A stretch of DNA of 64,000 nt from Immundisolibacterales bacterium (GCA_026712715.1 JAPOPW010000034.1:31720-95719), one strand, 5' to 3'; shown: positions 36,821 to 58,844, numbered from the stretch's first letter. Numbers and translations: made by a program. Notes: generated from the letters alone by a model not told the origin.

Positions 36821-39349
36821 TCAATCGAAGTCGCGCGCCACCCGAAGACCGACGTTGCGATGGATGGCGTAGGCGATCCCGCTTCGATTCGCAGAACGCA
36901 TGCTCCAGGGACGATTGAGCCAGGAGCCGCCACGCAGCGTCCGGAACACGCACTTGCCGCCGAACTCCGCCGCCAGGTAGGCGCTTCCGTCAACCGGGGC
37001 TCCTTCGTAGGTCTTGCGCCAGCAATCCTCCGTCCACTCCCAGACGTTCCCGTGCACGTCGTGCAGGCCGAACGGGTTCGGGGGGAACGAGCCGACCGGA
37101 GCCGTCCGCTTCTGTCCGTCCCACTCGGACTTGCAGCCGGAACAGTTCGCCCGGCCCTTCCCCACCTTCCGGCCCCAGGAGTACCGGGAAGTCGAACCCG
37201 CCCGGGCCGCGTACTCCCACTCGGCCTCGGTCAGCAGGCGGTAGGGCTCGCCCGTCTTCCGCGAGAGCCACTTCACGTACGCGCGCGCGTCCTTCCAGCG
37301 CACACCGACGACGGGACGGCGGCCTTTTCCCCAGCCCTGATCGTCGGGGTTTCTTTTGCAGGCCCCGGCACGAAAACACGATTCCCATTCGGCGAAGGTC
37401 ACCTCGTATCGTCCCACCGCCAACGGCTCGGAGATGGATACGCGGCGCTGCGGTCCTTCGTCGTCGGAGCGGCCCATCTCCGTCCGGGGCGAGCCCATCA
37501 GGTAGCTTCCGGCCGGAACCACCACCATCTCCGGACACTCGCGGCAGTCCCGGAACGTCCGCCCGGGGGTGCGCTCCTCGGCGCGTCGCACCGCCGCGGC
37601 ACGTAGCCCGCGAATCTCCGCGGCGCCGGGACTGTCCCGATGCGACCGGAGATAGTCGTCGTAGGCAGCGACCGTGGCGACGCGAATCGCGCGCGCATGC
37701 GCCGCCCGTTCCGCGCGCCTCGCCTCTTCCCGCCGACGCTCTTCCTCGCGCCGCTTCGCCTCCGCGGCGAGCCGCTCGCGCTCCAGGCGTTCCTGAAGCT
37801 CGCGGCGGGCCGACTCCTCCCGGAGCTCCGTTTCGCGCCGGAACGCGTCGGCCAGGAAGCGTCCCTGCGGTTGCGTGAGCCGGTACTGCTCGAAGCCCTC
37901 GATCGTATCGAGCTGCTCTGCAAGCGCGAACGCCGCTTCATCCGCACGACGCTCCTTCTCACGGCCTCTTTCTTCGGCCGCGAGCCGCTCGCGGGCCAGG
38001 CGCTCCTCCTCCGCCCGGCGTGCCTCTTCTTCGGCCAGGCGCTCGCGCTCGAGCCGTGCTGCCGCGGCCACACGGGCCTCCTCGGCCCGGCGAGCGGCCT
38101 CCCGGCGCTCCGCGTCCGCCACCGCCGCCACCAGCGCGTCGACCTCCCCGCGAGTGAGAAATCCCGTCACCGGCTTGCCGTTGGCCGCCTGGTAGTCGCG
38201 GATCGCGCCGCGCGTCCTCGGACCGAACTTGCCGTCCGCGGCGCCGACGTCGAAGCCGAGAGACGCAAGGCTGCGTTGGACCATGGTCCGGTCCGCCCGC
38301 ACGAGATCCAGGGTCATCTCTCGCGCCGCCGCCAGCTCGACCGGCAGGGGCGACGTCTCGCTCGCGCCATCGGCCGGGCCGCCGGCCGCCGTTCCCGCTC
38401 CGGGCGTCTTCGATCCCTCTCGCTCGTCGCCGGCCGACTCGAGCATCGGCCGGGCTGGATACGTTCCTTCCGATGCGATCGCAACCACCGTCTCCGTCCG
38501 CCCGATGAGGCTCGCGCGCTGCCGCCGCTTGAACTTCCTCCGAACCGCCCGCGTCATGTGACGGTCGAGATACCGCTTCACCTCCCGTGCAGTCACCCGG
38601 CCGTCCTGATTCCGATCACCCTTGCCGTACAGGGCATCTAGGAGATGGTGGGTGAACGCTCCATGCCCCGCCTCCTCATCCCAGGACGCGAGTTGGGCCT
38701 TCGACGCAGCGGTCAGCACCGTGAACCGCCCGTGCGTCTGCACGGGAAGGCTCGCCTCCACGTAGACCGGCGAGGCTGAGCGAACCAGCGTCCCGCCGGG
38801 GCTGTCCCCGGAGAAGCACGCGTCGAGGTACATCGTGACCGAGCGCGCCTCCGTGAGCTTCGCGAGGTTCCCGTAGAGCACGTCGATGGGGAATCCGTTG
38901 ATCTCCGCGGTGTCGGCGTGGGCGTCCGACGGTAGCAGGTACCCCCGGCCGTCCTTCTGGCCCGGCACCCCGTGGCCGGAGTAGTAGACGACGACGTCCG
39001 AACCGCCCTCCGGATTCAGATAGCTCCAGAGATCGCCCTCGCCGCCGTGCTCGCGCTCATTGCCGAAGGTGGTTTCGAGCTCCACCTTCGTGGCGTCGCG
39101 CAGATCGATGATGTTCTCCGGGTCGTAACCGAGCACGTCGAGCACGTAGCGCTTGAACGCCTCCGCATCACGATGCGCGAAGTCCACCGACGGCACGCGG
39201 TCGTTCACGTAGTTGCGGTTGCCGACGATGACCGCGACGCCGTCCGGGTTGGCGAACTCCGCCCGCGCGGTGGCGAGGGGAGCGGACGCGGCCGCAGCGG
39301 CGGCTGCGAGCAGGACGCTCCTGGCGAGCGTGCGGACGTTCTTCACCAT
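36821..39349 (-). CDS. Secreted caspase-like peptidase (C14) + peptidoglycan-binding domain + coiled coil + SUMF1/EgtB/PvdO (FGE-sulfatase) domain protein, paralog 1
   Basis: Track ORF 36821..39637, started at ATG 39349, preceded by GGAGAG. The signal peptide ends ...ATARA/EFANP. The caspase dyad is YYSGHG (H126) and LDACFSG (C178). The PG_binding_1-like module is GAADGKFGPRTRGAIRDYQ. There is a Glu/Arg-rich coiled coil. FGE-type motifs are MVVVPAGSYLMGS, HGNVWEWTEDCW and LRGGSW. Confidence 0.85.
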   Translation of the reverse strand: MVKNVRTLARSVLLAAAAAAASAPLATARAEFANPDGVAVIVGNRNYVNDRVPSVDFAHRDAEAFKRYVLDVLGYDPENIIDLRDATKVELETTFGNEREHGGEGDLWSYLNPEGGSDVVVYYSGHGVPGQKDGRGYLLPSDAHADTAEINGFPIDVLYGNLAKLTEARSVTMYLDACFSGDSPGGTLVRSASPVYVEASLPVQTHGRFTVLTAASKAQLASWDEEAGHGAFTHHLLDALYGKGDRNQDGRVTAREVKRYLDRHMTRAVRRKFKRRQRASLIGRTETVVAIASEGTYPARPMLESAGDEREGSKTPGAGTAAGGPADGASETSPLPVELAAAREMTLDLVRADRTMVQRSLASLGFDVGAADGKFGPRTRGAIRDYQAANGKPVTGFLTRGEVDALVAAVADAERREAARRAEEARVAAAARLERERLAEEEARRAEEERLARERLAAEERGREKERRADEAAFALAEQLDTIEGFEQYRLTQPQGRFLADAFRRETELREESARRELQERLERERLAAEAKRREEERRREEARRAERAAHARAIRVATVAAYDDYLRSHRDSPGAAEIRGLRAAAVRRAEERTPGRTFRDCRECPEMVVVPAGSYLMGSPRTEMGRSDDEGPQRRVSISEPLAVGRYEVTFAEWESCFRAGACKRNPDDQGWGKGRRPVVGVRWKDARAYVKWLSRKTGEPYRLLTEAEWEYAARAGSTSRYSWGRKVGKGRANCSGCKSEWDGQKRTAPVGSFPPNPFGLHDVHGNVWEWTEDCWRKTYEGAPVDGSAYLAAEFGGKCVFRTLRGGSWLNRPWSMRSANRSGIAYAIHRNVGLRVARDFD

Positions 39350-39652: not shown

Positions 39653-40684
39653 ATGTCACAGCCCCTGCCTTCCACCGCCAGACTGCTCGGCCTCGCGGCC
39701 GTGGTGTCCTTCGCCACCGCATGCGCCACCGTGCCCCCCGCCGCGAGTGCGCAGGGCAACGTCGGCACCAACATTCCCGTGCTCGTCATGAGCGAGGACG
39801 AGGATCCGAACACGGTCAAGCGATCCAGCGACATCTTCAAGCGGGTCATCGCCGAGCTCCAGGGCTCGATGCAGCGCCACGGCTTCCGGATGATCGACGA
39901 GGAATCGGTGGCGGCCGACCTGGGCTGGGAGATTTCCGACCGGCGTCCCAAGCGCGAGCTCATCGAGTCCATCAAGCTCATGGGCAAGAGCGGCAAGGCG
40001 TCGCACCAGGTGCGCGCCTGGGTGCTGTTCCGCATCCACGCGCAGGCCAAGCAGCTCTCCTTCGCGACCAAGGTGCAGACCCGCATCGACGGCGAGCTCT
40101 ACGACGCCGCTTCCAACCAGTTCCTCGACACCTTCGAGATGCCCCGGGAGGAATATCCGGCGCCGAAGGACTGCCTGGAGTCCTCGATCTGCATCAGCGA
40201 GGTGGTGGGCGACCGCGCACGCGAGATCGCGGGCGGCCTCGGCGAGGTGCTGGCCCGCAAGCTCGAGCGCTACTCCCCGCCGCGGGCGAGCGGCGCGGGG
40301 AGCGGAACCGCGGTCACCGGCGGCTCGGGCGGCGGAACCCACACCGGCGCGGGCCACGGCATGATGACCCCGTACACGGTGACCCTGCGCTACTTCGACG
40401 ATCGCGAGGCGCTCACCATCATCGGGGTGATGGCCGACGAATTCCCCGGCTACGAGACCCACGACCTCATCAACAAGTCCGCCACCGTCCGGCGCTACGA
40501 GTACCTCACCACCGCGAAGGCGATGAAGCTCGAGGAATGGCTGTTCATCCTGCTCCGCGACATGGGCTTCGACGAGACGCGCGAGATCCTCGTCCACGTG
40601 CAGGGCACCGACATCACGGTGGACAAGCTCATCCCGACCCCGCACCGCCCGGCGTCGCCGGACGAGAAGAAGCGCTTCAACTAG
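39653..40684 (+). CDS. Hypothetical lipoprotein (two domains joined by Gly/Ser-rich linker)
   Basis: This is the C-terminal 343 aa of track ORF 38972..40684. ATG 39653 is preceded by GAGAGGAA. It has a signal peptide with a lipobox-like FATA-C. It is divergent from paralog 1 and is followed by a strong terminator. I recognised no family. Confidence 0.7.
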   Translation: MSQPLPSTARLLGLAAVVSFATACATVPPAASAQGNVGTNIPVLVMSEDEDPNTVKRSSDIFKRVIAELQGSMQRHGFRMIDEESVAADLGWEISDRRPKRELIESIKLMGKSGKASHQVRAWVLFRIHAQAKQLSFATKVQTRIDGELYDAASNQFLDTFEMPREEYPAPKDCLESSICISEVVGDRAREIAGGLGEVLARKLERYSPPRASGAGSGTAVTGGSGGGTHTGAGHGMMTPYTVTLRYFDDREALTIIGVMADEFPGYETHDLINKSATVRRYEYLTTAKAMKLEEWLFILLRDMGFDETREILVHVQGTDITVDKLIPTPHRPASPDEKKRFN

Positions 40685-41630: not shown

Positions 41631-42419
41631 TCACTGGATGACGATGACGCCGCTCCCTCCCTTCTTGTCGTCCTCGTCCTCGTCTTCCGGCATGCGCTCC
41701 GGGGACCCGCCGCCCGGGACGCTGACGACGACGCCGTCGCCGCCGGCCCCGCCGCTCCCGCCCGACTGCGGTGGAGCCGGTGCCGGCGGTTCGGACGCCC
41801 CGGACGCAGCCCCGCCAGCCGGCTCATCGCCCGGCGCACGGTTCGCGGGCGGTTGAAAGGTGACGACCTCGACCCGCCGCTGGGCCGGATCGCCGTGGGG
41901 CAGGTCCTCGCGCGGGCGCTTCTCGCCGTGGCCCCGCACCTCGCGGAAACGGGTCTCGGCGATGGTGAAGTGCTCTCGCAGCCAGGCCGCGACCGCCTCG
42001 GCGCGCCGTTGGGAGAGCTTGCGGTTGAACTCGGCCGGCCCGCTCGAATCGGTGTGGCCGTACACCCCGATCGGTACCTGACCCAGCGCCTCCGAGACGA
42101 GCGCGGCGCCGAGCTCCCGGAGCTGGGCGACGGCGCTCTCGCCGAGCTCGGCCGAGTTCTTCCGGAACTCGACCCGGAGGTCGACGGAGCGGGTCTCGAG
42201 CGGGTCGCCGGTGATCGGGATGAGCTTGCCGACGAGGTCGTCTCGCCCCACCACCGGCACCGTGTCGCCCTCCTTCGGTGCGTCGCCGGCTGCCGCCGCG
42301 AGCGCGGGCAGCCCGCCGGCGAGGACGACGGTGAGCGCGAGCCCCGCCCGCGCCGCCGCTCTTGCGCGCGAACGGCGCCGCGGTCCGCGACGGGGGCCGG
42401 ATCGAGTGCGTGCCGCCAT
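41631..42419 (-). CDS. OmpA-family peptidoglycan-associated protein
   Basis: Track ORF 41631..42419. It has an Arg-rich signal region. The OmpA_C motifs are VEFRKNSAEL..., GHTDSSGPAEFNRKLSQRRAEAV and RRVEVV. The C-terminal tail is acidic and Gly-rich. Confidence 0.8.
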   Translation of the reverse strand: MAARTRSGPRRGPRRRSRARAAARAGLALTVVLAGGLPALAAAAGDAPKEGDTVPVVGRDDLVGKLIPITGDPLETRSVDLRVEFRKNSAELGESAVAQLRELGAALVSEALGQVPIGVYGHTDSSGPAEFNRKLSQRRAEAVAAWLREHFTIAETRFREVRGHGEKRPREDLPHGDPAQRRVEVVTFQPPANRAPGDEPAGGAASGASEPPAPAPPQSGGSGGAGGDGVVVSVPGGGSPERMPEDEDEDDKKGGSGVIVIQ

Positions 42420-42449: not shown

Positions 42450-42911
42450 CTACTGAGCGCGCAGGACCGGCTGCGGCTCGGGCCGCCGCAGCTCGTGGTC
42501 CCGCTCGATGGACGCCACTTCGGGCATCTCGAGAAGGCGGGCGATGAGCTCACCGTCCGCGTCGAGGGCGATGACGGGGAAGAGGCTGAACGTGCGGACG
42601 GCGGCGAGCTCGCCGGCCGGCATGATCGCCGCGAGGCGCTCCATCACCCGCGCGGCGGCCCCCGTGCCCGAACCGTCCCCCACCGCGAGGTTTACGATGA
42701 TCGGCAGCTTCCCGGTCGCCGGCTGACCCGCCGCTTCCGCCGCGCGCACCGCCGCCTCCGGAGACTCCCCTTCCACTGCGGGGACCTGGCAGGCGGCGAG
42801 AAGGCCCGCGAGCAGCAGGCATGCCATCGCGTGCACCACCGCCCCGATCCCGGGAAGGCCCATGCGGCACCCGGCCTCCGGGCCGGCCGCTAACCGGTAA
42901 CGGGTTTCCAT
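42450..42911 (-). CDS. Lipoprotein resembling a stand-alone subtilase propeptide (inhibitor I9-like)
   Basis: This is part of track ORF 42450..43007, started at ATG 42911 (ATG 42863 is an alternative). The lipobox is LLAA-C. IIVNLA...VRTFSLFPVIALDADGELIARLLEMPEVASIERD follows the I9 propeptide pattern. It also parallels VTRRYENFPVLAMEMDRAALRAAKEYGGTVEVFDD in the N-terminus of the adjacent S8 protease. Confidence 0.55.
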   Translation of the reverse strand: METRYRLAAGPEAGCRMGLPGIGAVVHAMACLLLAGLLAACQVPAVEGESPEAAVRAAEAAGQPATGKLPIIVNLAVGDGSGTGAAARVMERLAAIMPAGELAAVRTFSLFPVIALDADGELIARLLEMPEVASIERDHELRRPEPQPVLRAQ

Positions 42912-43102
42912 CCCTTGCCATCCTCCGTCGGTGGGTCGGGCTGCGGCAGCGGGTCCGCCGGCGTCTGGGGCGCGCATCCGATGAGCAGGCCCGTGAGCAG
43001 CAGGCATGCGCCCAGGGCGGACCGCGCGCGCGCGCGGAGGGCGGGGGCGGGGGCGGGGGCGGGGCCTCTCGTCCCAGTCTCTAGCCGGTGATGGCCTTCC
43101 AT
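42890..43102 (-). CDS. Small Pro-rich lipoprotein (70 aa)
   Basis: Track ORF 42890..43102. The signal peptide is ...ALGACLLLTGLLIG-C (lipobox). The start overlaps the S8 gene end by 22 nt and the end overlaps the next gene start by 22 nt. Confidence 0.5.
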   Translation of the reverse strand: MEGHHRLETGTRGPAPAPAPALRARARSALGACLLLTGLLIGCAPQTPADPLPQPDPPTEDGKGWKPVTG

Positions 43103-44616
43103 TCTTTCTTCTCCTTTGCGGGTTCGGTACCTGGTCCCGGCGCGGGCTCCGGCTTGGGTCCGGGACTGCCGCCGGGCTTCGGCTCGAGGGTCAACTGCGG
43201 AACGGGCACCGCGGACGAGCCGGCCGCCGCGGGCCCGAGACGTTCGATGGCCGCGCCGACGTCGATCAGCCGGGCCGCCCGGCCGCCGCTTCGCCGGTCC
43301 GGGATCTGCGGACCGGTGCTCTCGAGCACCCGCAGCAGCTCCTCCACCGAGCTGTGGGGAGACGCCTGCTTCAGGACCGCGAAGGCGCCGGCGACGTGCG
43401 GAGCGGCCATGGACGTTCCCGGCCAGCTATCGAATCCACGCTCCAGCCGGCCTCCTCCCTCGTCCTTCACGACGGACGATTGGATGTCGACCCCGGGGGC
43501 CAGCAGGTCGAGGGTCGGTCCGCTGTTGGAGAAGGAGGCGACCTCCTTCCCCTTCGTGACCGCTCCAACGCTGACGAAGCCCTCGACGCAGGCAGGGAAT
43601 CCCACCGGCGCCGCCCGGTCTTCCTCGGAGTCGTTTCCGGACGCCACCACCACCGGGACCCCGACCTCCCGGAAGAGGCGCGATGCGAGGTCCCACACGC
43701 GCGACGGGCAGACCCCCGGCTCGTCGCGGGACGCACCCAGGCTCATGTTGACCGCTCCGATGACCCCCGGATAGCGCCGCGCGAGGGTGATGACGACGTC
43801 CAGCGCGGCGAGGATGTTCCGTCCGCTCATCCCGCGCCGGCTCCGGTTGGCGACACTGATGATGATGAGCCGAAGTTCCGGCCCGACCCCGGCGAGGTCC
43901 TCGTCCACCGCCCCCCCGAGGGCGATCCCGGCGACGTGGGTCCCGTGCGAGCCGGCCGGAAGGGCCGCGCCCGGGCCGATCATCTCGGGGCGGCCGTTCG
44001 GACAGACGTCGGCGAAGCAGGCCTCGAAGACGGTGCGGCCCGCGAGGAAGGGGTGGCGCGTGTCGGCACCGTCGTCGATGACCGCGACCGCGAGCCCCCG
44101 GCCGGCATAACCCCTCCTCCACGCCCGCGGCGCCCCCACGAGGCTCGCGCTCTCGTCGAGGAGCGGCTCGAGCACCGGGTCGTCGAAGACCTCTACGGTG
44201 CCGCCATACTCCTTCGCGGCCCGGAGCGCGGCCCGGTCCATCTCCATCGCGAGGACCGGGAAGTTCTCGTACCGCCGGGTGACCGCGACACGCGCGGACG
44301 TCCCTTCGAGGCGCTTCACGAACTCGTCGCCGGTGATCGCGACCAGCCCATTGCCGCGGCTCCCCCGGGCGGCCTCGTCGCCGGTGACGGGGCGCCACCC
44401 GGTGACGAGGGCCGACACCGTGCCATCGGACCCGGCGCTCCGAAGGAGCCGCTCGAAGTCGTCGGCGAGGGCGGGCGCCGACGACGGCAGGTGGGCGATG
44501 GCGACGACAAGGGCGGCGAGGAACGAGCGTCGGACGCGGGGACGCCATCGCCCGGCTCGGACCCTGGACTCTCCGGTGGAGGAAGCTCCCTTCGTCTTCG
44601 TCCCGTGCGCCATCAT
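43081..44616 (-). CDS. S8 family (subtilisin-like) serine peptidase, secreted
   Basis: Track ORF 43081..44766, started at ATGATG 44616, preceded by GGAGGAG. It has a signal peptide. The catalytic triad motifs are VAVIDDGAD (Asp), HGTHVAGIA (His) and GTSMAAPHVAG (Ser). Confidence 0.9.
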   Translation of the reverse strand: MMAHGTKTKGASSTGESRVRAGRWRPRVRRSFLAALVVAIAHLPSSAPALADDFERLLRSAGSDGTVSALVTGWRPVTGDEAARGSRGNGLVAITGDEFVKRLEGTSARVAVTRRYENFPVLAMEMDRAALRAAKEYGGTVEVFDDPVLEPLLDESASLVGAPRAWRRGYAGRGLAVAVIDDGADTRHPFLAGRTVFEACFADVCPNGRPEMIGPGAALPAGSHGTHVAGIALGGAVDEDLAGVGPELRLIIISVANRSRRGMSGRNILAALDVVITLARRYPGVIGAVNMSLGASRDEPGVCPSRVWDLASRLFREVGVPVVVASGNDSEEDRAAPVGFPACVEGFVSVGAVTKGKEVASFSNSGPTLDLLAPGVDIQSSVVKDEGGGRLERGFDSWPGTSMAAPHVAGAFAVLKQASPHSSVEELLRVLESTGPQIPDRRSGGRAARLIDVGAAIERLGPAAAGSSAVPVPQLTLEPKPGGSPGPKPEPAPGPGTEPAKEKKEWKAITG

Positions 44617-49495: not shown

Positions 49496-50971
49496 TCAAT
49501 CCAACGTCCTGGCGACACGAAACCCGACAACGTCGTACCGGTGCCCGGTTTCGCGCCTGTTGCGCAGCGCGGATCGCTGAACCCCCGAACTGCCGATCCA
49601 CGAGCCACCACGCAACACACGCAGATTGCAGTTGCTTCCCGTCGTCCACGCGCGACCGTCCGACGGCGCTCCCGCATAGCTCTCATGCCAGCAGTCCTCA
49701 ACCCACTCCGAGACGTTCCCCGAAACGTCATGCAAGCCATATCGGTTCGGGCTGAAGCTCCCGACCGGTGACGTATGAACATGGCCGTCATCACACGATG
49801 CATGACTCCATCCCACATCGCTGTAGCGCCGCTTCAGTGCCTGGTCCGCTCCGTTCGCATGAACGCACTGGCCGCTCTCACTGCCTCCCCAATGGTGCAA
49901 CGTCGTAGTGCCTCCACGCGCCACGTACTCCCACTCCGACTCGCTCGGCAGCCGGTATTCAGCCCCGGCCTCGCGCGAAAGCCACCGAACGTAGGCCCGC
50001 GCATCCTCCCAGCTCACGCACGCCACCGGATGCTCATCGTCCTGAACGTAGCCCGGTTGGCGCCAGCTTCGTCCCGAACGCTTCTTCCACTCGCCGCCCG
50101 CGTGCGTCCGGCATGAATCGCCTGACGAATGGCCCGTCGCCTCGACGAACCGGCGCCATTCCTCGCGCGTCACCTCGTGCACCCCCACCGCGAACGGCTT
50201 CCGAATTGTCACCCGATGCACCGGACCCTCCTCCGTGAGCCATTGCTCCCACGACGGGGAACCCATCTCGTAGCTGCCTGCCGGGACCACCACCATCTCC
50301 GGACATCCTGGACAATCCCTGAACGTCTTCCCTACCTCCAGCTTCTGTTTCGACACCTCGGCAAGCAAGACCCGGGCTTCCGACTCGTGGCGACCCCCTC
50401 GGTCCAGATACGAGCGATAGCCTCCCGGCGTGTTCAGCCGCTTCGCTTCGAAAAACGCCTCGTCGTCCGCGCGGCGCTCCGGGTCCACACGCAGGCGCTC
50501 CGCCTCGCGGGCTGCCTCTTCCTGCCCCAGCTTCGCCGCATGCGCCTCCCCGCGCGCAACCAGCGCGTCGCGGAGCTCCGCCGTCAAATGCCCCGTCGCG
50601 GCAAGACCCTTCTTCTCCTGGTAGCTCCGGATCCCGGCCCGGGTCCGGCGGCCGAACACCCCGTCCGCTCCGCCGACGTCCTCCCCGAGCGAGGAGAGAC
50701 CGTGCTGAACCAGCACCCGGTCCTCGAACGTGAGACCGAGCGACACCTCCACCGACTCCGGCGTCCGGACCGGCGCGGCCACCGGGGCCTCTTCCCCCGC
50801 AGCGGCACTCGCCGCCTCCGCCGTCCCGGGAATTTCCGCGTCGAGCGACGGGCGGGACAGAAACGCGCCTTCGAAGCTGCTCGAGCGGCTCATCGGAAAG
50901 GACGACAGCCGCCCGCGCGGGGACGGGGCGAGCGGGCGGCCCCGAGCCCGCACGCTTCTCCTTGCCTCCAT
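49496..50971 (-). CDS. Peptidoglycan-binding + FGE-sulfatase domain protein, paralog 3 (no signal peptide, no caspase domain)
   Basis: Track ORF 49496..51112, started at ATG 50971, preceded by GGGAGGGG (ATG 50893 is an alternative). The PG-binding segment is ~85% identical to paralog 2 (LGLTFEDRVLVQHGLSSLGEDVGGADGVFGRRTRAGIRSYQ). FGE motifs are present (MVVVPAGSYEMGS, SGNVSEWVEDCW, LRGGSW). Confidence 0.75.
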   Translation of the reverse strand: MEARRSVRARGRPLAPSPRGRLSSFPMSRSSSFEGAFLSRPSLDAEIPGTAEAASAAAGEEAPVAAPVRTPESVEVSLGLTFEDRVLVQHGLSSLGEDVGGADGVFGRRTRAGIRSYQEKKGLAATGHLTAELRDALVARGEAHAAKLGQEEAAREAERLRVDPERRADDEAFFEAKRLNTPGGYRSYLDRGGRHESEARVLLAEVSKQKLEVGKTFRDCPGCPEMVVVPAGSYEMGSPSWEQWLTEEGPVHRVTIRKPFAVGVHEVTREEWRRFVEATGHSSGDSCRTHAGGEWKKRSGRSWRQPGYVQDDEHPVACVSWEDARAYVRWLSREAGAEYRLPSESEWEYVARGGTTTLHHWGGSESGQCVHANGADQALKRRYSDVGWSHASCDDGHVHTSPVGSFSPNRYGLHDVSGNVSEWVEDCWHESYAGAPSDGRAWTTGSNCNLRVLRGGSWIGSSGVQRSALRNRRETGHRYDVVGFRVARTLD

Positions 50972-51162
50972 GATGCCCCTCCCTGCAAGTTGCGGGCGCA
51001 ATCCAGTTTCGGCAACGAAAGGACGAGACCCCCAGCCTCGATGGACCGGCCCGCGCCGCGCCGGGGTTCGGACCGCGTGCACGACCGGGCAAAACGCGCC
51101 AGAACCTTCCATTGCGGGGTACGACTGGTACCGACCCGCAAGGCGGGGAAAGGAGCACTCTC

Positions 51163-52047
51163 ATGCAGCAGTCGAGCGGAACGGGGCGCGGCATCCGGCG
51201 CGCGGCCCTCGTCCTCGCGGCCGGGCTCGGCCCGGGCGCCGTCGTCCTTCCCCTGGCGGCCGGGGCCGCGATCTACGTCGATCCGGCAACCGCCGTCGTC
51301 GAGGACCGGGCCGCCGTCCAGCGGCTGGTCGTCGCGGAGGCGGTGCGAAACGGGGTGGTCCCCGCTCCCCTCGCCCTCGCAGTGGTCGAGGTCGAGTCGG
51401 AATTCGTCCCGCGGACGGTCGGCACGTCCGGTGCAATCGGACTCATGCAGATCCTCCCCGCCGTCGCGGAGCGCGAGTTCGCGGCCAATGCGGACGCGCT
51501 CTGGGAGCCGGTGACGAACCTTCGCATGGGCCTTGGCCGCCTCGCACGACTCCACGACCGCTACGACGGCGACTGGGAGCTCGCCCTCTCGCACTTCCGG
51601 GGCGGTGAGCTGCGGCGCGAAGCCGGGCGCTACGTCGCGCACGGCTACACGCTCGGCTACGTCGAGCGGGTGATGCGCGGCTGGCGGCGCTACCAGCGCG
51701 ACCCGCTCGTTCGGGCCTGGATCCGGGGGGCACGGGGAGTTCCGCGCTTCGTCGCGGCGGATGCGCTCCCTCGTTTCGAGACGCGGTCGGCCTTGGCAAC
51801 ACCGCCGATCCGGTGGGAGAGCGCGGCGGATTCAACCCGTCCGCGCCACCATCTTCGCGGCCATCACCACCGCCTCACCGATCGGTGCGACGAGACGCAC
51901 GCGGCGCGCCGGCCGGCCGGGTACCGCTTCGGCCGCAGCGGCGGAAGCGGCGGACGGTGGACGGCGATCGAAGGTGCGCCCTCCCCTGCTCTTCGCTTTC
52001 GCGACGGCCGGTGGGTGGCGGTCACCGGCGGCCCACGCTTCCGCTAG
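51163..52047 (+). CDS. Lytic transglycosylase (SLT domain) protein
   Basis: This lies in track ORF 51112..52047, starting at ATG 51163, preceded by AAAGGAG. It has a signal peptide. VVEVESEF (catalytic Glu) and SGAIGLMQI motifs are present. Confidence 0.8.
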   Translation: MQQSSGTGRGIRRAALVLAAGLGPGAVVLPLAAGAAIYVDPATAVVEDRAAVQRLVVAEAVRNGVVPAPLALAVVEVESEFVPRTVGTSGAIGLMQILPAVAEREFAANADALWEPVTNLRMGLGRLARLHDRYDGDWELALSHFRGGELRREAGRYVAHGYTLGYVERVMRGWRRYQRDPLVRAWIRGARGVPRFVAADALPRFETRSALATPPIRWESAADSTRPRHHLRGHHHRLTDRCDETHAARRPAGYRFGRSGGSGGRWTAIEGAPSPALRFRDGRWVAVTGGPRFR

Positions 52048-52556: not shown

Positions 52557-54353
52557 ATGGGCGAGAGGGCCAGGGTCCGGCTCATCCGGGGCGCGCAGAG
52601 CGACGAGCTGCGCGCGACCTTCCGCCAGCTCGCCGAGCTCGACGGACCGAACGGTCCGAAATTCCCGCGACGGGTCCTCATGGAGCTTGCGGCCCGGATC
52701 GTGGGCCGGGCCTACGAGCCGATGCTGCTCGAGCTCTCCCACCTCGCGCGCGCCGCCCGGCTGGCAACGCAGGGGCTGCCGGGAGGGCGGCGCGGCGCGG
52801 ACGCAGGGGCCGGCTTCGAGTGGCTCTTCTGGGGCGTCGAGGAGGCACGGGCCGGTGCGTTCCGGGCCGCCTTCCTCGAATCGAACGGCACCTTCGCGAG
52901 CCCCGCCCCACCTCCGGCGACCCATGACGACGAGGGCCGGTCCGGCGCGGCGGGCGGCGCGCTCCGCATCGGGGAGGACGGCGTCATCCTCAGCTACCCG
53001 GACGGCCGGTTCGAGCTCCGGTACGGACGCATGGTGGACCTCGCCGCAATGATGGAGCTGCTCGTCTCCACCCTCGGCTACCGCGCGCTCGTCGATGTCC
53101 TCGATCCGCTCGCGGCGCCCGTCGTCGACCGCGGGACGGTCGCGGGAGCCGCCCGCGACCTCGCCCGCCGGTTCTACGAGTGGCTGGGCGGCCATCTCCC
53201 GACCGCCCAGGCGCAACGCAAGTTCCACGCGATGATCGCGTTCCTCGAAGAGTCGCTCGGGGCCGACTTCACGGACGAGGACATCGACGACGAGGCGGTC
53301 CTTCGCTTCTGGCTCCGCCAGGTTGCGCCCGCCGGCGGCGAGACGCCGGCGGGCGGCGCGGGCACCGACTTTCGCGGCTACCGCAACACCTTCCTCGCCT
53401 TCCTCGCCCTCGCCCGGGTGCTCGAGGAAGGGGCGGAGCGCGGGCGCTTCGAGCGGCACGTGTCGATCGGCTCCGACTTCGAGGCGGGGGAGATTGACCC
53501 TGCGGCCGAGTCCGCGGCAACGCCGGAGGGCGCGGCCGAGTTCGACCCCCTCGCGCTGCTCCAGGAGGAGCCGGCCGCCGTGATCAAGGCGCTCAACCAG
53601 CGCGAGCTCACCCTCCTCCGGCTCCCGGTCGGAGAAAACGACGGGGTGCGGCGCCTGCCCCGCTCGTACCTGCGGGCCGAGTGCTTCGGTCCGGTGCAGA
53701 ACCGCCTGTCGCAGGCGCTACGCCGCAAGGCGGGCGCGGCGGAGCTCGCGGCGGTGGTCGCGGCCGGGCCGGATCCGGGCTATCGCGCCCGGATCGAAGC
53801 ACTGAAGAAGGCCGACGTGCACGTGCGCCGGGTGGCCAGGGCGTGCCTCTTCGTCCTGCACCGGATGGGGGGCGACGCGGGCGGCGGCGGCGGCGAACGC
53901 GACCGCGGACGCGCGAAGACCGGCCCCGGCGAGGGAAGCGAGAGCGGCGTCGGGCCGGTGCTCGACTTCCGGCTTCTCGGGGAAGCCCGCAAGGCATTCG
54001 AAGGACTGAACCGCGCGGGCTTCGAGCGCTCCGCCCCGAGCGACCCCGAGCTCGCGCCCGCCTACGGCGCGCTCGCGGACACCTTGCCGTGCGTCGCCGA
54101 ACGTCTGGGGGCGGTCCTTCTCACCTTCGGTCCGCCGGACTCGTGGGAGCGCGCCGAGGCGGAGGATCGCGCGGTCTTCTCGCGCACCTTCGCCCGGCTC
54201 TACGGCGCGGCGACGAACGAGCCGCCGCCGGAACCGGACGGGGAGGCGCGAGGACGCGGTGGCGCTTGCAGCACGCGCGGCGACGGCGGACCGATCCGGT
54301 CGCCGCCCCCGCCGCGCACGAGCCCGGCACGACCGGCGGGAGGACGACCATGA
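52557..54353 (+). CDS. Hypothetical protein (598 aa), no recognisable domain
   Basis: This lies in track ORF 52149..54353, starting at ATG 52557, preceded by GGAGAGGG. It has coding-like GC3 bias and an acidic/helical composition. It is translationally coupled (ATGA) to the next gene. Confidence 0.6.
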   Translation: MGERARVRLIRGAQSDELRATFRQLAELDGPNGPKFPRRVLMELAARIVGRAYEPMLLELSHLARAARLATQGLPGGRRGADAGAGFEWLFWGVEEARAGAFRAAFLESNGTFASPAPPPATHDDEGRSGAAGGALRIGEDGVILSYPDGRFELRYGRMVDLAAMMELLVSTLGYRALVDVLDPLAAPVVDRGTVAGAARDLARRFYEWLGGHLPTAQAQRKFHAMIAFLEESLGADFTDEDIDDEAVLRFWLRQVAPAGGETPAGGAGTDFRGYRNTFLAFLALARVLEEGAERGRFERHVSIGSDFEAGEIDPAAESAATPEGAAEFDPLALLQEEPAAVIKALNQRELTLLRLPVGENDGVRRLPRSYLRAECFGPVQNRLSQALRRKAGAAELAAVVAAGPDPGYRARIEALKKADVHVRRVARACLFVLHRMGGDAGGGGGERDRGRAKTGPGEGSESGVGPVLDFRLLGEARKAFEGLNRAGFERSAPSDPELAPAYGALADTLPCVAERLGAVLLTFGPPDSWERAEAEDRAVFSRTFARLYGAATNEPPPEPDGEARGRGGACSTRGDGGPIRSPPPPRTSPARPAGGRP

Positions 54354-55093
54354 GCAGGCCGTGGAGCGCAAGGAGCGAGGCGGAACGAAAACGAATGGAG
54401 GCGGCGTTCGTGGCCCGCCACGGCGCCGAGATGCTGCTCGACGGCGATTCGGAGCCTCCGCCCGCGACCGGAGACGAGTTGCCGCCCGGAACGCTGCGTC
54501 CGGGCCGCCGACTTCCCTTCGCGCACCTCCACGCGTCCCTGCGCGGTGGCCGGCCGCTGCCGCCCGAGGTCTCGGCCGCGCTTCGATCGGACCCCGCGCT
54601 CCGCGACGACTTCGCGCTCCTCGTCCGCCGGAGCGCCCGCCAGCACCTGCCGCGCGCGGCCGCCGCGGCGGGGCGTGAAGGCATTCTCCGGCGCGAGGCG
54701 GGGGGGTTCGTCGTCCGCCTCGTCGCGTCGCGGGCCGGCCGCGACCAGGTCTACCTCCTCGTCGAGCTGCCCGAGGAGGTGGCCGCGGAGGCACAGGTGC
54801 GGGCAGGACCGGATGCAAACGGTTCCGGGCGCCAGCCGGCGGAGGTTCGGGCGGCTGACGACCGGATCGGCGGGGACCCCGCGCCCGACGCGGCGGGCGG
54901 AACGCCCCCGCCCGCCGCCCGACGCGCGGCGCCTGCCGCACCGGATCGGATGGTCGTGCGGACCGCGGACGGGGAATTCCTGAAGCAGGCCCTCCCGTCG
55001 CCCGAAGACCGCACCGTGCGACTCGTGATGGAGGCGGACGACCCGCTGATACGGGCGGTGGCCGAACCCGCGAGCGAGATCTATCTGCTGTGA
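54350..55093 (+). CDS. Hypothetical protein (247 aa)
   Basis: This lies in track ORF 53681..55093. ATG 54350 is preceded by GGGAGGA and overlaps the upstream TGA. I recognised no family. Confidence 0.55.
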   Translation: MSRPWSARSEAERKRMEAAFVARHGAEMLLDGDSEPPPATGDELPPGTLRPGRRLPFAHLHASLRGGRPLPPEVSAALRSDPALRDDFALLVRRSARQHLPRAAAAAGREGILRREAGGFVVRLVASRAGRDQVYLLVELPEEVAAEAQVRAGPDANGSGRQPAEVRAADDRIGGDPAPDAAGGTPPPAARRAAPAAPDRMVVRTADGEFLKQALPSPEDRTVRLVMEADDPLIRAVAEPASEIYLL

Positions 55094-55259: not shown

Positions 55260-56882
55260 GTGAACCGGATCCGGGTGTTCATCGCGACCACGGAGGGGCC
55301 GGTTGCGGTGCAGAAGATTACCGCCGAGGACCCGGACGTTCCGTCCGTCGCCTGCCGCGACGGCACCACCGAGGTCCTCGCGATCTCACGCGACTACACC
55401 CGCTTCGTCGAGCGGGGCACCGGCCTGGTGGCGGCGCTCACCGGCCACGGCGCGTACCGCCTGGATCTGGACCGGCCGGTGGACGGCGGGCGGAGCTGGC
55501 AGCTACCGGTGCTGCTGGCCCACCTCCTCGAGGCCGAGGGGCGCCTCGCGGGGCCGGACGAGCCCGCCGACCTCGCGCTCCTCGCGACCGGGGAGGTCGA
55601 CCGCGATCAGCGGGTGCGGCGGGGCGGCCGGATCCCCGAGAAGCTCGCCGCCGCGAACGACCTCGTCACCCGGCACCGGCAAGCCGGCCCGCCCCTGGTG
55701 GTGCTGGTGCCGGCGGCGGATCGGACACCCGCGATCGATGCGGCGCCGCCGGCGCCGGGCGGCGACTTCGAAGGCATGGTGTCGGTGCTCGCCTGGGAGC
55801 GGGTCATGGGTCTCACCGACCTCGAGGCGGCGCCGGCGGGCCGGTTGGCACCGCATGCGGGACGGGCGCCGGGCGATGCCCCGGACCCGCAAGCGGGCGC
55901 GGGCGGAGGCGCATCACGCGCCGTCCCGAAAGACGCCGCCCGGCGGGCGGCGGAGAGCGGCACGGGCAACGGCTCGCATCGCGGCCCCACCGGCGACTCC
56001 GGGGACGTGGACGCTCCCCCGCGCCGGCCCGCGAATCCGTCCACGCCGTCACGAGAGCACGCCGCCGCCGAACCGGACCCGGATCCGGTTCCGGCCCCGC
56101 CGGGCGGAGCGGCCGCCGCACGCCCCCGGCGCCGGACGGGGCGGACGGCCACCGCGATCCTTCTCGTCGCGGCAGTGGCGGGGGCAGCGTCCGGAGCCGC
56201 CTGGTGGAACGGCCCGCGGGACTGGGAGATGCTGCGTCGCGCGGGAGACTACGAGGGTCTCGAACGCGCCCTCCGGCAGTCCGTCGTCGCTCCCCTGGCC
56301 GATCGGTACCGGTCCGGACTCCTCGCCGGCGCGCCCGCCCCGGAGAGCCTCGTCTTCAGCCTCGTGGAGCAACGGACGGCGGACGGGCAGCCCTGCGATC
56401 CGGGCGGCTTCCGCGACGCGGACCGCACGGAGCGCGCCCGCCTGGCGGGGACCCCCATGCCCCCCCTCAGGCCGGGGTTCTTTCGCTCCGAGGGGGGCGC
56501 GAGCCTCTGCCGGGCGGTGTATCGCGTCGCCAACGAGGGCGAGCGGCTGGTCTACGTCTACTTCGCGGTCCGGCCGTCGCTCTCGTCGGCGGCCGGCAAG
56601 GCGGAGGCTCCGGCGGTCCGGCGCGCTGCCGCCCTCCCCCCCGGCGCGAGCCTCGCTCTCGACCTCGACCTCGACCTCCGGCTCTTTCGGGACCGGATTC
56701 TCGGTGCCGACCTGCTGGTCCTCGCCGCCCCCAGCCCGTCCCCACAGATTCGCCACGCATTCGAGCTCGCGTCGGAGGCCGGCGCGGGGAGCCGTGCACG
56801 GGGGGCGGCTCCGCTCGATCTCACCGCACTGCCCGCGCTCGGCCTCACCGTCAAGGGGGCGAGCCACGCCATCCTGCGGTAG
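55260..56882 (+). CDS. Membrane protein with N-terminal Lon-protease-like (S16 fold) domain, one TM helix and a C-terminal extracytoplasmic domain
   Basis: Track ORF 55260..56882 (GTG start). PVDGGRSWQLPVLLAHLL...LLATGEVDRDQRVRRGGRIPEKLAAAN...VVLVPAAD parallels Lon_C (DGPSAGIA...AMTGEITLRGxVLPIGGLKEKLLAAHR...VLIPxxN). The TM helix is TATAILLVAAVAGAASGAAWW, around aa 300. Confidence 0.55.
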   Translation: MNRIRVFIATTEGPVAVQKITAEDPDVPSVACRDGTTEVLAISRDYTRFVERGTGLVAALTGHGAYRLDLDRPVDGGRSWQLPVLLAHLLEAEGRLAGPDEPADLALLATGEVDRDQRVRRGGRIPEKLAAANDLVTRHRQAGPPLVVLVPAADRTPAIDAAPPAPGGDFEGMVSVLAWERVMGLTDLEAAPAGRLAPHAGRAPGDAPDPQAGAGGGASRAVPKDAARRAAESGTGNGSHRGPTGDSGDVDAPPRRPANPSTPSREHAAAEPDPDPVPAPPGGAAAARPRRRTGRTATAILLVAAVAGAASGAAWWNGPRDWEMLRRAGDYEGLERALRQSVVAPLADRYRSGLLAGAPAPESLVFSLVEQRTADGQPCDPGGFRDADRTERARLAGTPMPPLRPGFFRSEGGASLCRAVYRVANEGERLVYVYFAVRPSLSSAAGKAEAPAVRRAAALPPGASLALDLDLDLRLFRDRILGADLLVLAAPSPSPQIRHAFELASEAGAGSRARGAAPLDLTALPALGLTVKGASHAILR

Positions 56883-57098: not shown

Positions 57099-58844
57099 TC
57101 AGCGGCGGTTGAGGATTCCGCCCATGATGGTGCCGAAGACCTTCAGGGCCTGCGTCGCCTGCTGCTCCTCCGCCTGTCGCCGATCGCGCAAGCCGCGCGC
57201 CTCCGCAACGTGGCGGCCCCGGGGGAACGCCAACAGATACTCGTGATAGCCGGCCGCGGTGTTCGCCGCCTTCGCCCGCACGAACGCATCGTCGTCCGCG
57301 GCCTGGCGCTTCAGCGTCTCGGCATGCCGCAGCGCATCGCGCTCCCGGCGGGCCTCCGCCACGTGGATCCCGTCCGGAAACATGCCGAGGTACTCGTCGT
57401 ACCCCGCCACCGTGCCGAGCGTCCTGGCCCATGCGAACGCGTCGTCGTCCGCCGCCTTCCGCTTCGCGTCCGCGGCCTTGCGCTTCGCGTCCGCTTCGTT
57501 CCGGGCCGCGGTCAGCCGCTCGCGCTCGCGGCGCTCCGCCTCCACGTTCGCCCGTGCCTGCGCCGCCCGCCCGAACGGCTCCAGCGCAGCCACCTGCCCG
57601 CCCGTGAGATAACCCGTCGGCGAGTATCCCTTCGAGGACTGCCAGCCGCGGATCCCCCGCCGCGTTCGCGGCCCGAACTTCCCGTCCGCGCCACCGACGT
57701 CGAAGTCGAGGGCATTGAGGGCGTGCTGGATCAGGCGGCGGTCCTGCCGGAGGAGTCCGAGCCCCGCCTCGACCTCCCGCGGCGTCAGCGAGGACGGCAC
57801 GGCCGGGGCGGAAGCCGCAGGCGCGGCTGGGGCGGAAACCGCGACCTGCCCTGCGCCGGTGGCCGGAGCGGTCTTGCTCCCGCCCGCCGGGAGGTCTTCC
57901 GTGGCCGGCTGCGTCTCGACGAGGGCCAGCTCCGGCCGGTCCGGGAACCCTCTGCCGCCCGCGAAGGCGGCGAGCACGGTGTCGGCGTTTCCGGTGAAGC
58001 TCACCCGCTGCCGCCGCTTGTAGGTACGGCGCGCCGCGCGGGTCATGTGGCGGTCGAGGTACGCCTTCGCCTCCCGGGCGGTCACCCGCCCGTCCGTGTC
58101 CGCATCGCTCTTGCCGTAGAGGGCGTCGAGGAGGTGATGCGTGAACAGGCCGTGACCCGCCTCGTGATCCCACGACGCGAGCTGCTCCCCCGTCGCCGCG
58201 GTCAGCACCGAGAGGCGCTCCCCGGCCTGCGCGGGAAGGTCGGCGCCGACGTAGACCGGAGAGGCGGACCGGATGAGCATCCCGCCGCCGCCGCTCCCGC
58301 CCGAGAAGCACGCGTCGAGGTACACCGCGACCGAGCGGGCTTCTTCGAGACTGGACAGGTTCTCGTACAGGACGTCGATGGGGTAGCCGTTCAGCTCCGC
58401 GGTATTCGGGTCGGCGTTCACCGGCAGGAGGTAGCCGCGCTTGTCCTCGAGCCCCGGCGCTCCGTGCCCGGAATAGAAGACCACCACGTCCGACCGGCCA
58501 TCGGGGTCGAGGTACGACCAGAGCTCGCTCCGATCCGCGGTCGCCCGGCTCCCGAAGGTGGACCACATCTCGGCCTGGGTCGCGTCACGGAGATCGATGA
58601 CGTTCTCCGGGTCGAACCCGAGCACGTCGACCACGTATCGCCGGAACGCCTCGGCGTCGCGGTGGGCGAACTCCACGTCCGGGATATCGCCCTGGTAGGT
58701 CCGGTTGCCGATGATGACCGCCACCCCGTCCGGGTTCGCGAACTCCGCACGCGCGGGGACGAAGGAGCCGGCGACCGCCGCCGAAATCAAGGCGCACCCG
58801 AGCATGAGAGAGCGAGAGACCGCCCGTGTCGCTTGCGCTGCCAT
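57099..58844 (-). CDS. Secreted caspase-like (C14) + peptidoglycan-binding + coiled-coil protein, paralog 4 (no FGE domain)
   Basis: Track ORF 57099..58865, started at ATG 58844, preceded by GGAGGG. The signal peptide ends ...PARA/EFANP. It has FYSGHG (H127), LDACFSG (C179) and the PG-binding module GGADGKFGPRTRRGIRGWQ. Two tandem copies of a DDDAF...GY.EYL..FP.G.HVAEAR motif lie near the C-terminus. Confidence 0.85.
   Translation of the reverse strand: MAAQATRAVSRSLMLGCALISAAVAGSFVPARAEFANPDGVAVIIGNRTYQGDIPDVEFAHRDAEAFRRYVVDVLGFDPENVIDLRDATQAEMWSTFGSRATADRSELWSYLDPDGRSDVVVFYSGHGAPGLEDKRGYLLPVNADPNTAELNGYPIDVLYENLSSLEEARSVAVYLDACFSGGSGGGGMLIRSASPVYVGADLPAQAGERLSVLTAATGEQLASWDHEAGHGLFTHHLLDALYGKSDADTDGRVTAREAKAYLDRHMTRAARRTYKRRQRVSFTGNADTVLAAFAGGRGFPDRPELALVETQPATEDLPAGGSKTAPATGAGQVAVSAPAAPAASAPAVPSSLTPREVEAGLGLLRQDRRLIQHALNALDFDVGGADGKFGPRTRRGIRGWQSSKGYSPTGYLTGGQVAALEPFGRAAQARANVEAERRERERLTAARNEADAKRKAADAKRKAADDDAFAWARTLGTVAGYDEYLGMFPDGIHVAEARRERDALRHAETLKRQAADDDAFVRAKAANTAAGYHEYLLAFPRGRHVAEARGLRDRRQAEEQQATQALKVFGTIMGGILNRR

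Follow-up and report, generated by a model that had tools for sequence, protein, structure and literature searches.

What do four paralogous proteins do that combine a caspase-like (C14) domain, a peptidoglycan-binding module and a domain of the formylglycine-generating enzyme (FGE) type in different subsets, and that are encoded together with other envelope proteases within ~22 kb? The genes lie at positions 36821-58844 of a 64,000 nt stretch of DNA from an Immundisolibacterales bacterium (GCA_026712715.1 JAPOPW010000034.1:31720-95719; hereafter, the whole stretch is called the window), and an earlier note made from the sequence alone had proposed that they form a peptidoglycan-anchored proteolytic cascade or an envelope-stress or cell-death module. 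Comparison of the locus with public genomes and metagenomes shows that the invariant core of the cluster is formed by three plus-strand genes that this first reading had overlooked, A, B and C (52557-56882, +), rather than by the caspases. Judged from domain assignments and structure models, it is an even call whether the cluster constitutes a conserved envelope-spanning system for proteolytic signaling in surveillance of the periplasm.

Conservation of the SLT-A-B-C core

The G+C content of the window is ~70% and its listings of open reading frames (ORFs) are crowded with shadow frames; genuine genes were chosen by codon-position GC. The gene models obtained for A, B, C and a 343-aa lipoprotein of the cluster (lipo343) are identical to public PGAP calls, all four of which are named 'hypothetical protein'. 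The core operon comprises the following genes:

51112..52047, plus strand: SLT, lytic transglycosylase (Pfam SLT 59.2 bits); first gene of the core operon, likely start ATG ~51163
52557..54353, plus strand: core protein A, 598 aa, predicted to be cytoplasmic, mostly alpha-helical; no known family or fold
54350..55093, plus strand: core protein B, 247 aa (~180 aa elsewhere); start overlaps the stop codon of A
55260..56882, plus strand: core protein C, 540 aa; Lon-like domain, Pro-rich linker, one transmembrane (TM) helix (~293-327), Ig-like domain

Proteins with the C14, PG_binding_1 and FGE architecture are very common. We obtained 1128 matches at E <= 1e-10 among the candidates scored, with C14 domains 50-68% identical, and a scan of one genome per species returned 241 relatives, often several per genome, from Gamma- and Alphaproteobacteria, Binatia, Nitrospira, Thermodesulfobacteriota and Nitrospinaceae. 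Conservation of the neighborhood was determined by tblastn of the window neighbors against 76 foreign C14 loci; the loci from public genomes and metagenomes that were compared with the window carry L-numbers (L001, L002 and so on). Homologs were found for lipo343 in 18 loci, SLT in 15, the ORF 52149-54353 that contains A in 14, the ORF of C (55260-56882) in 13, an S8 subtilase and an OmpA-like protein in 12 each, and a DUF4384-like protein in 11. In addition, lipo343 occurs in 9 distant A-B-C loci, and no other periplasmic partner of the core is conserved as widely; the S8 gene recurs in L107 and the OmpA-like gene in the distant loci L086, L101, L091 and L096.

In 14 C14-anchored loci, SLT, A, B and C follow each other in a fixed order on a single strand, and the periplasmic genes are shuffled around this core. 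The hosts of these loci are Gammaproteobacteria, Pseudomonadales, Azotimanducaceae, Binatia, Thermodesulfobacteriota, Nitrospinaceae, a Rhizobiaceae metagenome-assembled genome (MAG), Nisaea, Thalassobaculum and Rhodospirillales. SLT is located directly upstream of A in nearly all loci, and B, which has no Pfam match, separates A from C wherever the sequence of a locus extends far enough. The SLT-A-B-C order is also kept by 23 distant metagenome homologs of A (28-36% identity), often with the lipoprotein. It is this order, maintained in 14 C14-anchored and 23 distant loci, that argues for a conserved system.

Gene-called loci that were reached from the side of A or C carry C14-FGE genes beside the core in five of five cases. 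L079 encodes C14-SH3-FGE, SLT, A, B and C with the lipoprotein nearby; in L106, two C14-SH3-FGE genes stand between the lipoprotein and SLT-A-B-C. In L107, C14-FGE, SLT, A, B, C, the DUF4384 protein, S8, two small genes and three more C14-FGE genes follow each other on one strand, which also carries an unannotated 342-aa gene of the size of lipo343; this locus is in essence a compact form of the gene set of the window. L086 places a trypsin-like protease, the lipoprotein, OmpA and a DUF4384 protein (69.8 bits) ahead of SLT-SLT-A-B-C. The system thus has a constant core, SLT-A-B-C, usually accompanied by the lipoprotein, the DUF4384 protein and OmpA, and variable proteases, namely one to six C14-FGE copies and S8 or trypsin. 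The link between C14 genes and core is facultative, and some distant cores carry the trypsin protease instead. The earlier suggestion that the clustering is meaningful is borne out, as homologs of the lipoprotein, S8, OmpA, DUF4384 and SLT genes adjoin C14-family genes across several phyla. ABC transporters, histidine kinases and enoyl-CoA hydratases recurred in all-against-all clustering of the loci as generic families and were rejected as specific partners.

The alphaproteobacterial-type system contains extra conserved genes that are not in the window: a ~140-aa membrane protein upstream of SLT (14 loci) and proteins of ~197, 307, 168, 329 and 223 aa downstream of C. None of the extra genes is in Pfam. 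They are located at L086 8086-8508 and 13407-18113, and also in L101, L091, L096, L097, L092, L058/L032, L068 and L046. In L079 (1-1214 and 4352-5935), an AAA_15/AAA_21 ATPase gene, a DUF4276 gene and two transposase genes adjoin the cluster of lipoprotein, C14-FGE and SLT-A-B-C; such an ATPase and DUF4276 form the domain pair of the PARIS defense system.

The C14 paralogs and their C-terminal domain

The four paralogs are labeled P1 to P4 in the order of their coordinates:

36821..39349, minus strand: P1, 842 aa; signal peptide, orthocaspase-like C14 domain, PG_binding_1, long Glu/Arg-rich helix, PvdO-type FGE/C-lectin-fold domain (C14 47.6, PG_binding_1 47.6, FGE-sulfatase 186.6 bits)
45068..47287, minus strand: P2, 739 aa; signal peptide, C14, PG_binding_1, one helical motif, PvdO-type FGE domain (C14 44.3, PG_binding_1 36.7, FGE 177.8 bits)
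49496..50971, minus strand: P3, 5'-truncated; PG_binding_1 and FGE, without C14 and without signal peptide (PG_binding_1 41.0, FGE 216.7 bits; no C14 match)
57099..58844, minus strand: P4, 581 aa; signal peptide, C14, PG_binding_1, two helical motifs, no FGE domain (C14 48.8, PG_binding_1 43.5 bits; no FGE match)

All four minus-strand ORFs described in the earlier note exist and are paralogous, with 46-56% identity to P1 across the full length and 62-69% within the C14 domain. Every Pfam domain score exceeds its gathering score, which supports the C14 fold (PF00656, cut-off 21.4 bits), the FGE fold and, in all four paralogs, the PG_binding_1 module (36.7-47.6 bits against 23). The motifs SGHG and DACFSG are present in P1, P2 and P4, and His102 and Cys154 are invariant among 23 diverse family members. 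By inspection, the N-termini of the same three proteins consist of a basic and then a hydrophobic stretch that ends in (A/V)RA right before EFANP. P1 and P2, for which signal peptide and His/Cys dyad had already been noticed, and likewise P4, are therefore predicted to be Sec-type exported, wall-binding, periplasmic orthocaspases with an intact dyad. P4 lacks the FGE domain as described. The Glu/Arg-rich segment, described earlier as a coiled coil in P1 and P2, extends in P1 over ~170 residues and includes two DDxAFxxA..YxxYL..EAR motifs; in the other paralogs it is much shorter. A plus-strand frame inside P1 (window 37501-38250) that is favored by the codon-position GC plot is an artefact of this low-complexity segment and no gene.

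An Immundisolibacterales MAG encodes a public protein identical to P1 under the name SUMF1/EgtB/PvdO family. The public gene call of P2 also has 739 aa, and its orthologs are 74% (L002) and 63% (L003) identical; the nearest relative of P4 is found in L007 (65% identity). Since every paralog is more similar to orthologs from other genomes (63-79% identity) than to its cluster mates (46-56%), the paralogs are old and maintained. P3 does lack signal peptide and caspase domain, but it does not represent a designed domain subset: it is probably a 5'-truncated remnant or pseudogene. The first 100 codons of its ORF have a non-coding GC pattern, its overall G+C at third codon positions (0.77) is lower than that of the other paralogs, and its best match, in L004 (63% identity), begins at residue 82 of the P3 ORF. 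At the position of P3, divergent from SLT, L004 carries a full-length C14, PG_binding_1 and FGE gene. A tandem duplicate of P1, 79% identical over the full length, is located at L002 12582-15080; the precomputed table lists no Pfam family for it, though its neighbor carries all three domains.

The C-terminal domain of P1-P3 matches FGE-sulfatase (PF03781) with 177.8-216.7 bits, and its closest solved relative is PvdO (PDB 5HHA; E 1.5e-59, ~50% identity over ~250 residues). Genuine FGE structures align over the middle of the domain only and stop before the C-terminal segment, the segment that holds the catalytic Cys pair of FGE. This Cys pair is absent from the C-terminal segment of the domain, which reads RGGSW(L/V/I)..(P/S)....RSA.R, and a true FGE enzyme is thereby ruled out. 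An ortholog of PvdO is ruled out as well: the NCBIfam PvdO model NF051459 scores 244.5 bits against an equivalog cut-off of 500, and no pvd or non-ribosomal peptide synthetase (NRPS) genes are present among the genes scanned in the cluster. With PvdO the domain shares the periplasmic location, the lack of FGE catalytic cysteines and a CxxCPEMVV motif, whereas PvdO is a single-domain protein of a siderophore pathway and the domain here is fused to a protease and a wall-binding module outside any pvd context. By profile and fold matches the C-terminal domain is a PvdO-like module of the FGE/C-lectin fold and no formylglycine-generating enzyme, which narrows the SUMF1/EgtB/PvdO type assigned earlier.

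A clue to the role of this domain comes from L105. Its family member, whose C14 domain is 64% identical to P1 and whose FGE domain is 54% identical to P3, lies 4 kb downstream of SLT-A-B-C and has bAvd and RVT_1 genes immediately behind it, with a DUF4384 protein next. At the end of the reverse transcriptase (RT) gene, the terminal 121 nt of the C14-FGE gene recur with 85% identity, and 16 of the 18 mismatches fall at adenines of the RT-proximal copy, the template repeat (TR), as opposed to the variable repeat (VR) in the C14-FGE gene. The TR is rich in AAC codons and encodes ...GGSWNNKPSNLRAANRNRNTTGNRNNNNGFRVAR. This pattern is the signature of a diversity-generating retroelement (DGR) that mutates the FGE patch:

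L105 15527-19410: complete DGR with bAvd, RVT_1 and 121-nt TR (19247-19367); VR (17500-17620) corresponds to the 3' end of the C14-FGE gene

HicB-like antitoxin genes and a transposase are located near the DGR in L105.

We determined the variability of the patch as the entropy at the 11 positions equivalent to the mutated codons of L105 in 107 family members. The mean entropy of these positions is 3.26 bits vs 1.13 in the rest of the domain (Mann-Whitney p = 5e-8), and among all 15-residue windows of the FGE domain in these members, the VR-equivalent segment varies most. P1, P2 and P3 differ at exactly those positions. The whole-domain median identities, 57% for FGE and 62% for C14, are misleading with respect to hypervariability because the variability is concentrated in the VR-equivalent patch. 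In the protein P0402, the N-domain of C is joined via a TM helix to the same PvdO-type FGE domain. Since the DGR of L105, the patch entropy, the patch differences between P1, P2 and P3 and the P0402 fusion all point to recognition, the FGE domain is likely a variable binding head, a lectin-fold module with a hypervariable patch.

Core proteins and periplasmic partners

For A, we collected 67 homologs, none with Pfam domains or informative names. Its AlphaFold2 (AF2) model is confident (pLDDT 80.9, pTM 0.70) and mostly helical; Foldseek returned no structural match in PDB (best E 0.36) or BFVD (best E 0.64), and sequence and profile searches of PDB gave nothing meaningful.

The N-terminal 150 residues of C are extremely conserved, and its C-terminal part is an Ig-like beta-sandwich with a conserved Cys pair in alignments and AF2 model. 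C is predicted to be bitopic, with a cytoplasmic Lon-like Ser/Lys domain and a periplasmic Ig-like domain. The predicted topology of the system follows from signal peptides and lipoboxes, from the basic residues on the N-terminal side of the TM helix of C and from the Cys pair in its Ig-like domain. The best Foldseek matches of the C model are the Lon proteolytic domains of B. subtilis and E. coli (8dvh_B and 3wu4_B; probability 0.99, E 1.9e-3 and 1.4e-2). Alignment by hhalign with a single Lon sequence, at low probability and E 2e-3 to 2e-2, places the C motif ATGEV..RV..V..I.EK on MTGEI..VLPIGGLKEK of Lon and GxSWQL on GPSAG, with K128 on the Lon KEK and S79 on GPSAG. C has no match to Pfam Lon_C or in NCBIfam and none in PDB by phmmer or profile search. 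C may resemble the Lon S16 domain, given the fold match and an invariant Ser and Lys at Lon-like spacing; it lacks an AAA+ module and is a putative protease.

An exhaustive search with the N-domain of C yielded 923 cluster representatives. T10, Y46, F49, G55, R67, G77, S79, H88 and K128 are invariant in 145 N-domain representatives, and by a crude count of TM segments ~83% of 150 representatives continue with a TM segment and then an unrelated, variable C-terminal domain. Fusions join the N-domain to NACHT (P0389), to nSTAND1 and TPR (P0405) and to cytochrome c domains (P0393), and on the NACHT and nSTAND1 NTPases it occupies the N-terminal position. On STAND NTPases, this position is the site of effector or adaptor domains (PMC7159879, PMC8195603). 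The invariant S79, K128, H88 and R67, the Lon-fold matches, the NACHT/nSTAND1 fusions and the TM segment with variable C-terminus together suggest that the N-domain is an effector-like, putative Ser/Lys protease domain that is also found on STAND proteins. An 812-aa ORF ~6 kb upstream of A-B-C in L087 (1806-4244) and L089 (1276-3714) carries the Lon-like motifs DGDSAS and VTGSV..IGGVNEK in its C-terminal region, which may be coincidence.

The periplasmic partners of the core in the cluster, listed with one uncertain small ORF, are:

39653..40684, plus strand: lipo343, 343-aa lipoprotein with the lipobox-like sequence FATAC
41631..42419, minus strand: OmpA-like peptidoglycan-binding protein, 262 aa (Pfam OmpA 51.8 bits)
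42450..42911, minus strand: 153-aa lipoprotein with the lipobox LLAAC, downstream of S8, conserved in 8 loci
42890..43102, minus strand: uncertain small ORF of ~70 aa that overlaps the S8 gene at its end; gene calls at this position in L001 (70 aa) and the relative L002 (68 aa)
43081..44613, minus strand: S8 subtilase, 510 aa (Pfam Peptidase_S8 149.8 bits), start from the public gene call
47355..49214, minus strand: DUF4384-type periplasmic protein, ~604-619 aa, start uncertain (Pfam 20.2 bits, below the cut-off of 27)

A, B, C, lipo343 and the 153-aa lipoprotein belong to no family in Pfam, NCBIfam or PADLOC; for the cluster as a whole, PADLOC-DB v2 gives generic caspase, subtilase and MotB-like matches only. 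Homologs of lipo343 carry a clear L-S-A-C lipobox, and one of them matches FlgO weakly (E 0.004). In the S8 subtilase, the D/H/S motifs VIDDG, HGTHVAG and GTSMAAP are intact. By inspection, a twin-arginine-like motif, RVRRSFLAAL, precedes the hydrophobic stretch at its N-terminus, and the protein may be exported folded via Tat rather than Sec. The gene of the 153-aa lipoprotein is called in L001 and L002; its residues 66-119 weakly resemble the propeptide-like N-terminal region of S8 (BLASTP E 0.016), and it may be a propeptide-like S8 partner, a stand-alone inhibitor or chaperone. The DUF4384-type protein is conserved in at least 11 loci, and its subthreshold match is consistent in four homologs (17.5-24.6 bits). 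The neighbors named in the earlier note are thus confirmed for OmpA, S8 and SLT and weakly for DUF4384; the periplasmic or cell-wall location predicted there for nearly every product agrees with domain calls, signal peptides and lipoboxes. Between the lipoprotein and OmpA genes (window 41065-41600, +) lie decayed remnants of an AAA_14/DUF4143 ATPase gene that is intact (405 aa) at the equivalent place in L002, probably an unrelated insertion that is being lost.

The left flank holds an ordinary polyhydroxyalkanoate (PHA) set of PhaC synthase, phasin and PhaR-type regulator (27956-31349), ~5.5 kb upstream of the cluster, and between this set and the cluster, as the immediate flank, genes for a glutathione synthetase, an enoyl-CoA hydratase and a glutaredoxin-DinB protein. 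Further upstream (window 12042-18221, +), a 2059-aa UvrA-like protein with UvrA_inter, UvrA_DNA-bind and several ABC P-loops has about twice the usual UvrA length. An Rfam scan of the whole window matched no family.

Readings of the locus and relation to described systems

If the cluster serves proteolytic signaling in periplasm surveillance, the C14-lectin paralogs would act as wall-tethered 'recognize and cut' units with differing specificities. When such a unit binds a ligand in the periplasm, be it a foreign molecule or a damaged part of the envelope, proteolysis would follow there, with S8 or trypsin as alternative or additional proteases. C would relay this event across the inner membrane by a logic like that of BlaR1-type sensor-proteases, and its cytoplasmic protease-like domain would act with or on A and B, resulting in growth arrest, autolysis or changed regulation. 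SLT could open the wall for assembly of the complex or join in lysis. BlaR1 and MecR1 are transmembrane sensor-proteases, BlaR1 being a zinc protease; C is similar to them in its outer sensor domain, single membrane pass and inner protease-like domain, but has no sequence homology to BlaR1.

This surveillance or conflict reading, the one we favor, has indirect support from the DGR that targets the binding patch and from the occurrence of the N-domain of C on STAND NTPases. Several observations weigh against it. No RVT gene occurs among the window genes scanned, which rules out a DGR in the window itself, and linkage to a DGR was seen in one locus only (L105). An enzymatic role of the PvdO-like domain is conceivable because it is ~50% identical to an enzyme-annotated protein. 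The scores of the Lon assignment are weak (Foldseek E ~2e-3; hhalign E 2e-3 to 2e-2; no Lon_C), and residues 13-77 of C (window 55296-55490), the most conserved stretch of the family with several invariant residues, are poorly modeled by AF2 with much of the pLDDT <50; their folding may require oligomerization or a partner. Caspases are no obligatory part of the system, given that the 23 distant cores have no C14 gene within 10 kb, and 32 of 46 C14 loci with full flanks are solo, without a partner gene within 10 kb, compared with 14 that have at least one specific partner. No known defense gene is present in the window cluster, in which PADLOC finds no system. Homologs of A, C or the C14 family are absent from IMG/VR viral contigs; PLSDB plasmids contain no homolog of C, and P1 matches there through the FGE domain only. 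Together with the housekeeping genes that flank the cluster and the lack of an integrase or tRNA, these results speak against a classical mobile defense island.

The same flanks and the absence from viral contigs and plasmids are what would be expected of a chromosomal cluster for housekeeping maintenance of the envelope, in which wall-bound proteases, SLT and the OmpA-like anchor remodel peptidoglycan-associated proteins or outer-membrane tethers in growth or differentiation and A-B-C acts as regulator. A wall-related domain in every periplasmic part and the well conserved C14 and FGE scaffolds (median identity 62% and 57%) fit such a role. We nevertheless regard it as unlikely, if a serious alternative: the distribution across phyla is patchy at high identity (lipo343 is 60% identical between gammaproteobacterial and Thermodesulfobacteriota MAGs), which points to a function that is accessory and transferable; the binding patch is hypervariable, with a DGR behind it in one case; the number of paralogs (1-6) and the type of protease vary; and the domain of C occurs on STAND NTPases. 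A fortuitous neighborhood, created by local duplication of the paralogs among unrelated bystander envelope genes, would account for the solo C14 loci (32 of 46), for the remnant state of one copy and for the decayed ATPase gene inside the cluster. It is essentially excluded by the recurrence of the same partner families beside C14 genes in many phyla despite shuffling of the gene order, and by the age of the paralogs, which are nearer to orthologs elsewhere than to one another.

FGE-fold matches to structures and models of PorK/GldK, a dedicated SLT at the head of the operon, as is typical of envelope machines, and the presence of lipoproteins and an OmpA-like anchor raise the question of a trans-envelope assembly or secretion machine with FGE-fold ring parts, sortase-like processing by clan CD peptidases, an OmpA anchor and an SLT that opens the wall. 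FGE fold, OmpA-like anchor and a periplasmic clan CD cysteine peptidase are indeed shared with type IX secretion (PorK/GldK, PorE, PorU). However, the GldK score of 85 bits against an equivalog cut-off of 350 and the lack of PorL/M/N-like genes rule out a type IX system; PorV is likewise missing, the hosts lie outside Bacteroidota, the fusions of the domains differ and scores remain far below the family cut-offs. No ATPase, secretin or outer-membrane barrel gene is found in the cluster, C14-FGE genes are dispensable in distant versions and a DGR-diversified tip suits binding better than a ring structure, so that we consider a secretion machine of any kind improbable. Even less probable is a periplasmic tailoring pathway that would rely on the PvdO-like domains as oxidative enzymes and on the proteases for maturing a secreted peptide or a siderophore-like compound. 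It is supported by the ~50% identity to PvdO (5HHA) and by 244 bits with the NCBIfam PvdO model, a score that falls short of the equivalog threshold of 500. Genes for an NRPS, a precursor or a transporter show no conservation alongside the cluster, the PvdO-like domain is missing from P4 and the trypsin-type versions, and the variable patch does not resemble an active site.

Parts of the system have been described before. In a survey of prokaryotic metacaspases (Asplund-Samuelsson et al. 2012, PMC3501461), C14 is combined with FGE in 33 of 671 proteins and with PG-binding domains in 11 of 671, OmpA is noted in 14 caspase operons and multi-caspase operons are reported, without an assigned function, in line with what the earlier note had stated about C14-FGE fusions. 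The domain combinations, multi-caspase operons, OmpA and the intact His/Cys dyad agree with our cluster, whereas that survey defined no system and did not recognize the SLT-A-B-C core, the lipoprotein and DUF4384 partners or the Cys-less PvdO-like domain.

Orthocaspase-CLec proteins are described as DGR targets in cyanobacteria, together with non-diversified paralogs (PMC7517822). They have in common with the present family an N-terminal orthocaspase, a C-terminal C-lectin/FGE fold, a VR at the extreme C-terminus (as in L105) and the non-diversified paralogs. Compared with that account, the window lacks RT and TR, the proteins are predicted to be exported and wall-binding, the core has no NTPase, and the hosts are Proteobacteria, Binatia, Nitrospinae and others. 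For FGE/CLec domains, a role in sensing antigens has been proposed, in some cases in the periplasm (PMC10907252); STAND proteins employ them as sensors (PMC13581612), and more generally they are proposed or used as sensors of conflict systems (PMC7159879, PMC8195603, PMC10907252, PMC13581612). Similar to the FGS-sensor/peptidase-effector and STAND systems of PMC7159879, PMC8195603 and PMC13581612, our cluster combines a presumed FGE sensor with caspase, trypsin or subtilisin effectors, paralog expansion and variable effectors, and the N-domain of C on NACHT and nSTAND1 proteins is a shared feature. In contrast to these systems, no cluster gene encodes the defining NTPase of the type described by Kaur et al. 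(MoxR-vWA, STAND or GTPase); fusions of the N-domain of C with NACHT or nSTAND1 occur only in proteins outside the cluster, and the action is predicted to be periplasmic. Term searches of PMC7159879 and PMC8195603 did not show the core of SLT, A, B, C and lipoprotein among the systems described there.

The C14-FGE fusion and the targeting of orthocaspase-CLec proteins by DGRs are thus already known. Consistent with the view of the earlier note that the cluster is not a described system, a periplasmic, wall-bound C14-FGE system with SLT-A-B-C, lipoprotein and DUF4384 protein was not found in Pfam, NCBIfam or PADLOC or, mostly by term search, in the open-access literature; an earlier description in other literature may exist. 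More tentatively, the cluster could be an immune-like surveillance of the Gram-negative periplasm that is widespread across phyla: wall-tethered lectin-head caspases would sense foreign or damaged material in the space between the membranes and signal via the bitopic C, whose Lon-like effector domain also belongs to bacterial NLR-type proteins, and two cytoplasmic proteins with no known fold would complete the route. In this possible but doubtful case, the 'antigen-binding' heads would owe their diversity to paralogy and, in part of the hosts, to a retroelement.

Caspase-FGE fusions of prokaryotes have been catalogued since 2012 without function or partner and are now given a defined, conserved genetic context. 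What is gained is a likely function for the FGE domain, that of a variable head for binding, and five unannotated partner families, including A, which has no structural relative, and a putative Ser/Lys protease family (923 cluster representatives) that is also found on NLR-like NTPases. If the cluster instead serves housekeeping remodeling of the wall, it would still be a new multi-protein envelope system in many environmental lineages. If it serves periplasm surveillance, the 'sensor plus protease' principle known from bacterial immunity in the cytoplasm would also apply to the first compartment on the path of phage, predators and toxins, and the long-open role of prokaryotic caspases would become directly testable by genetics and biochemistry.

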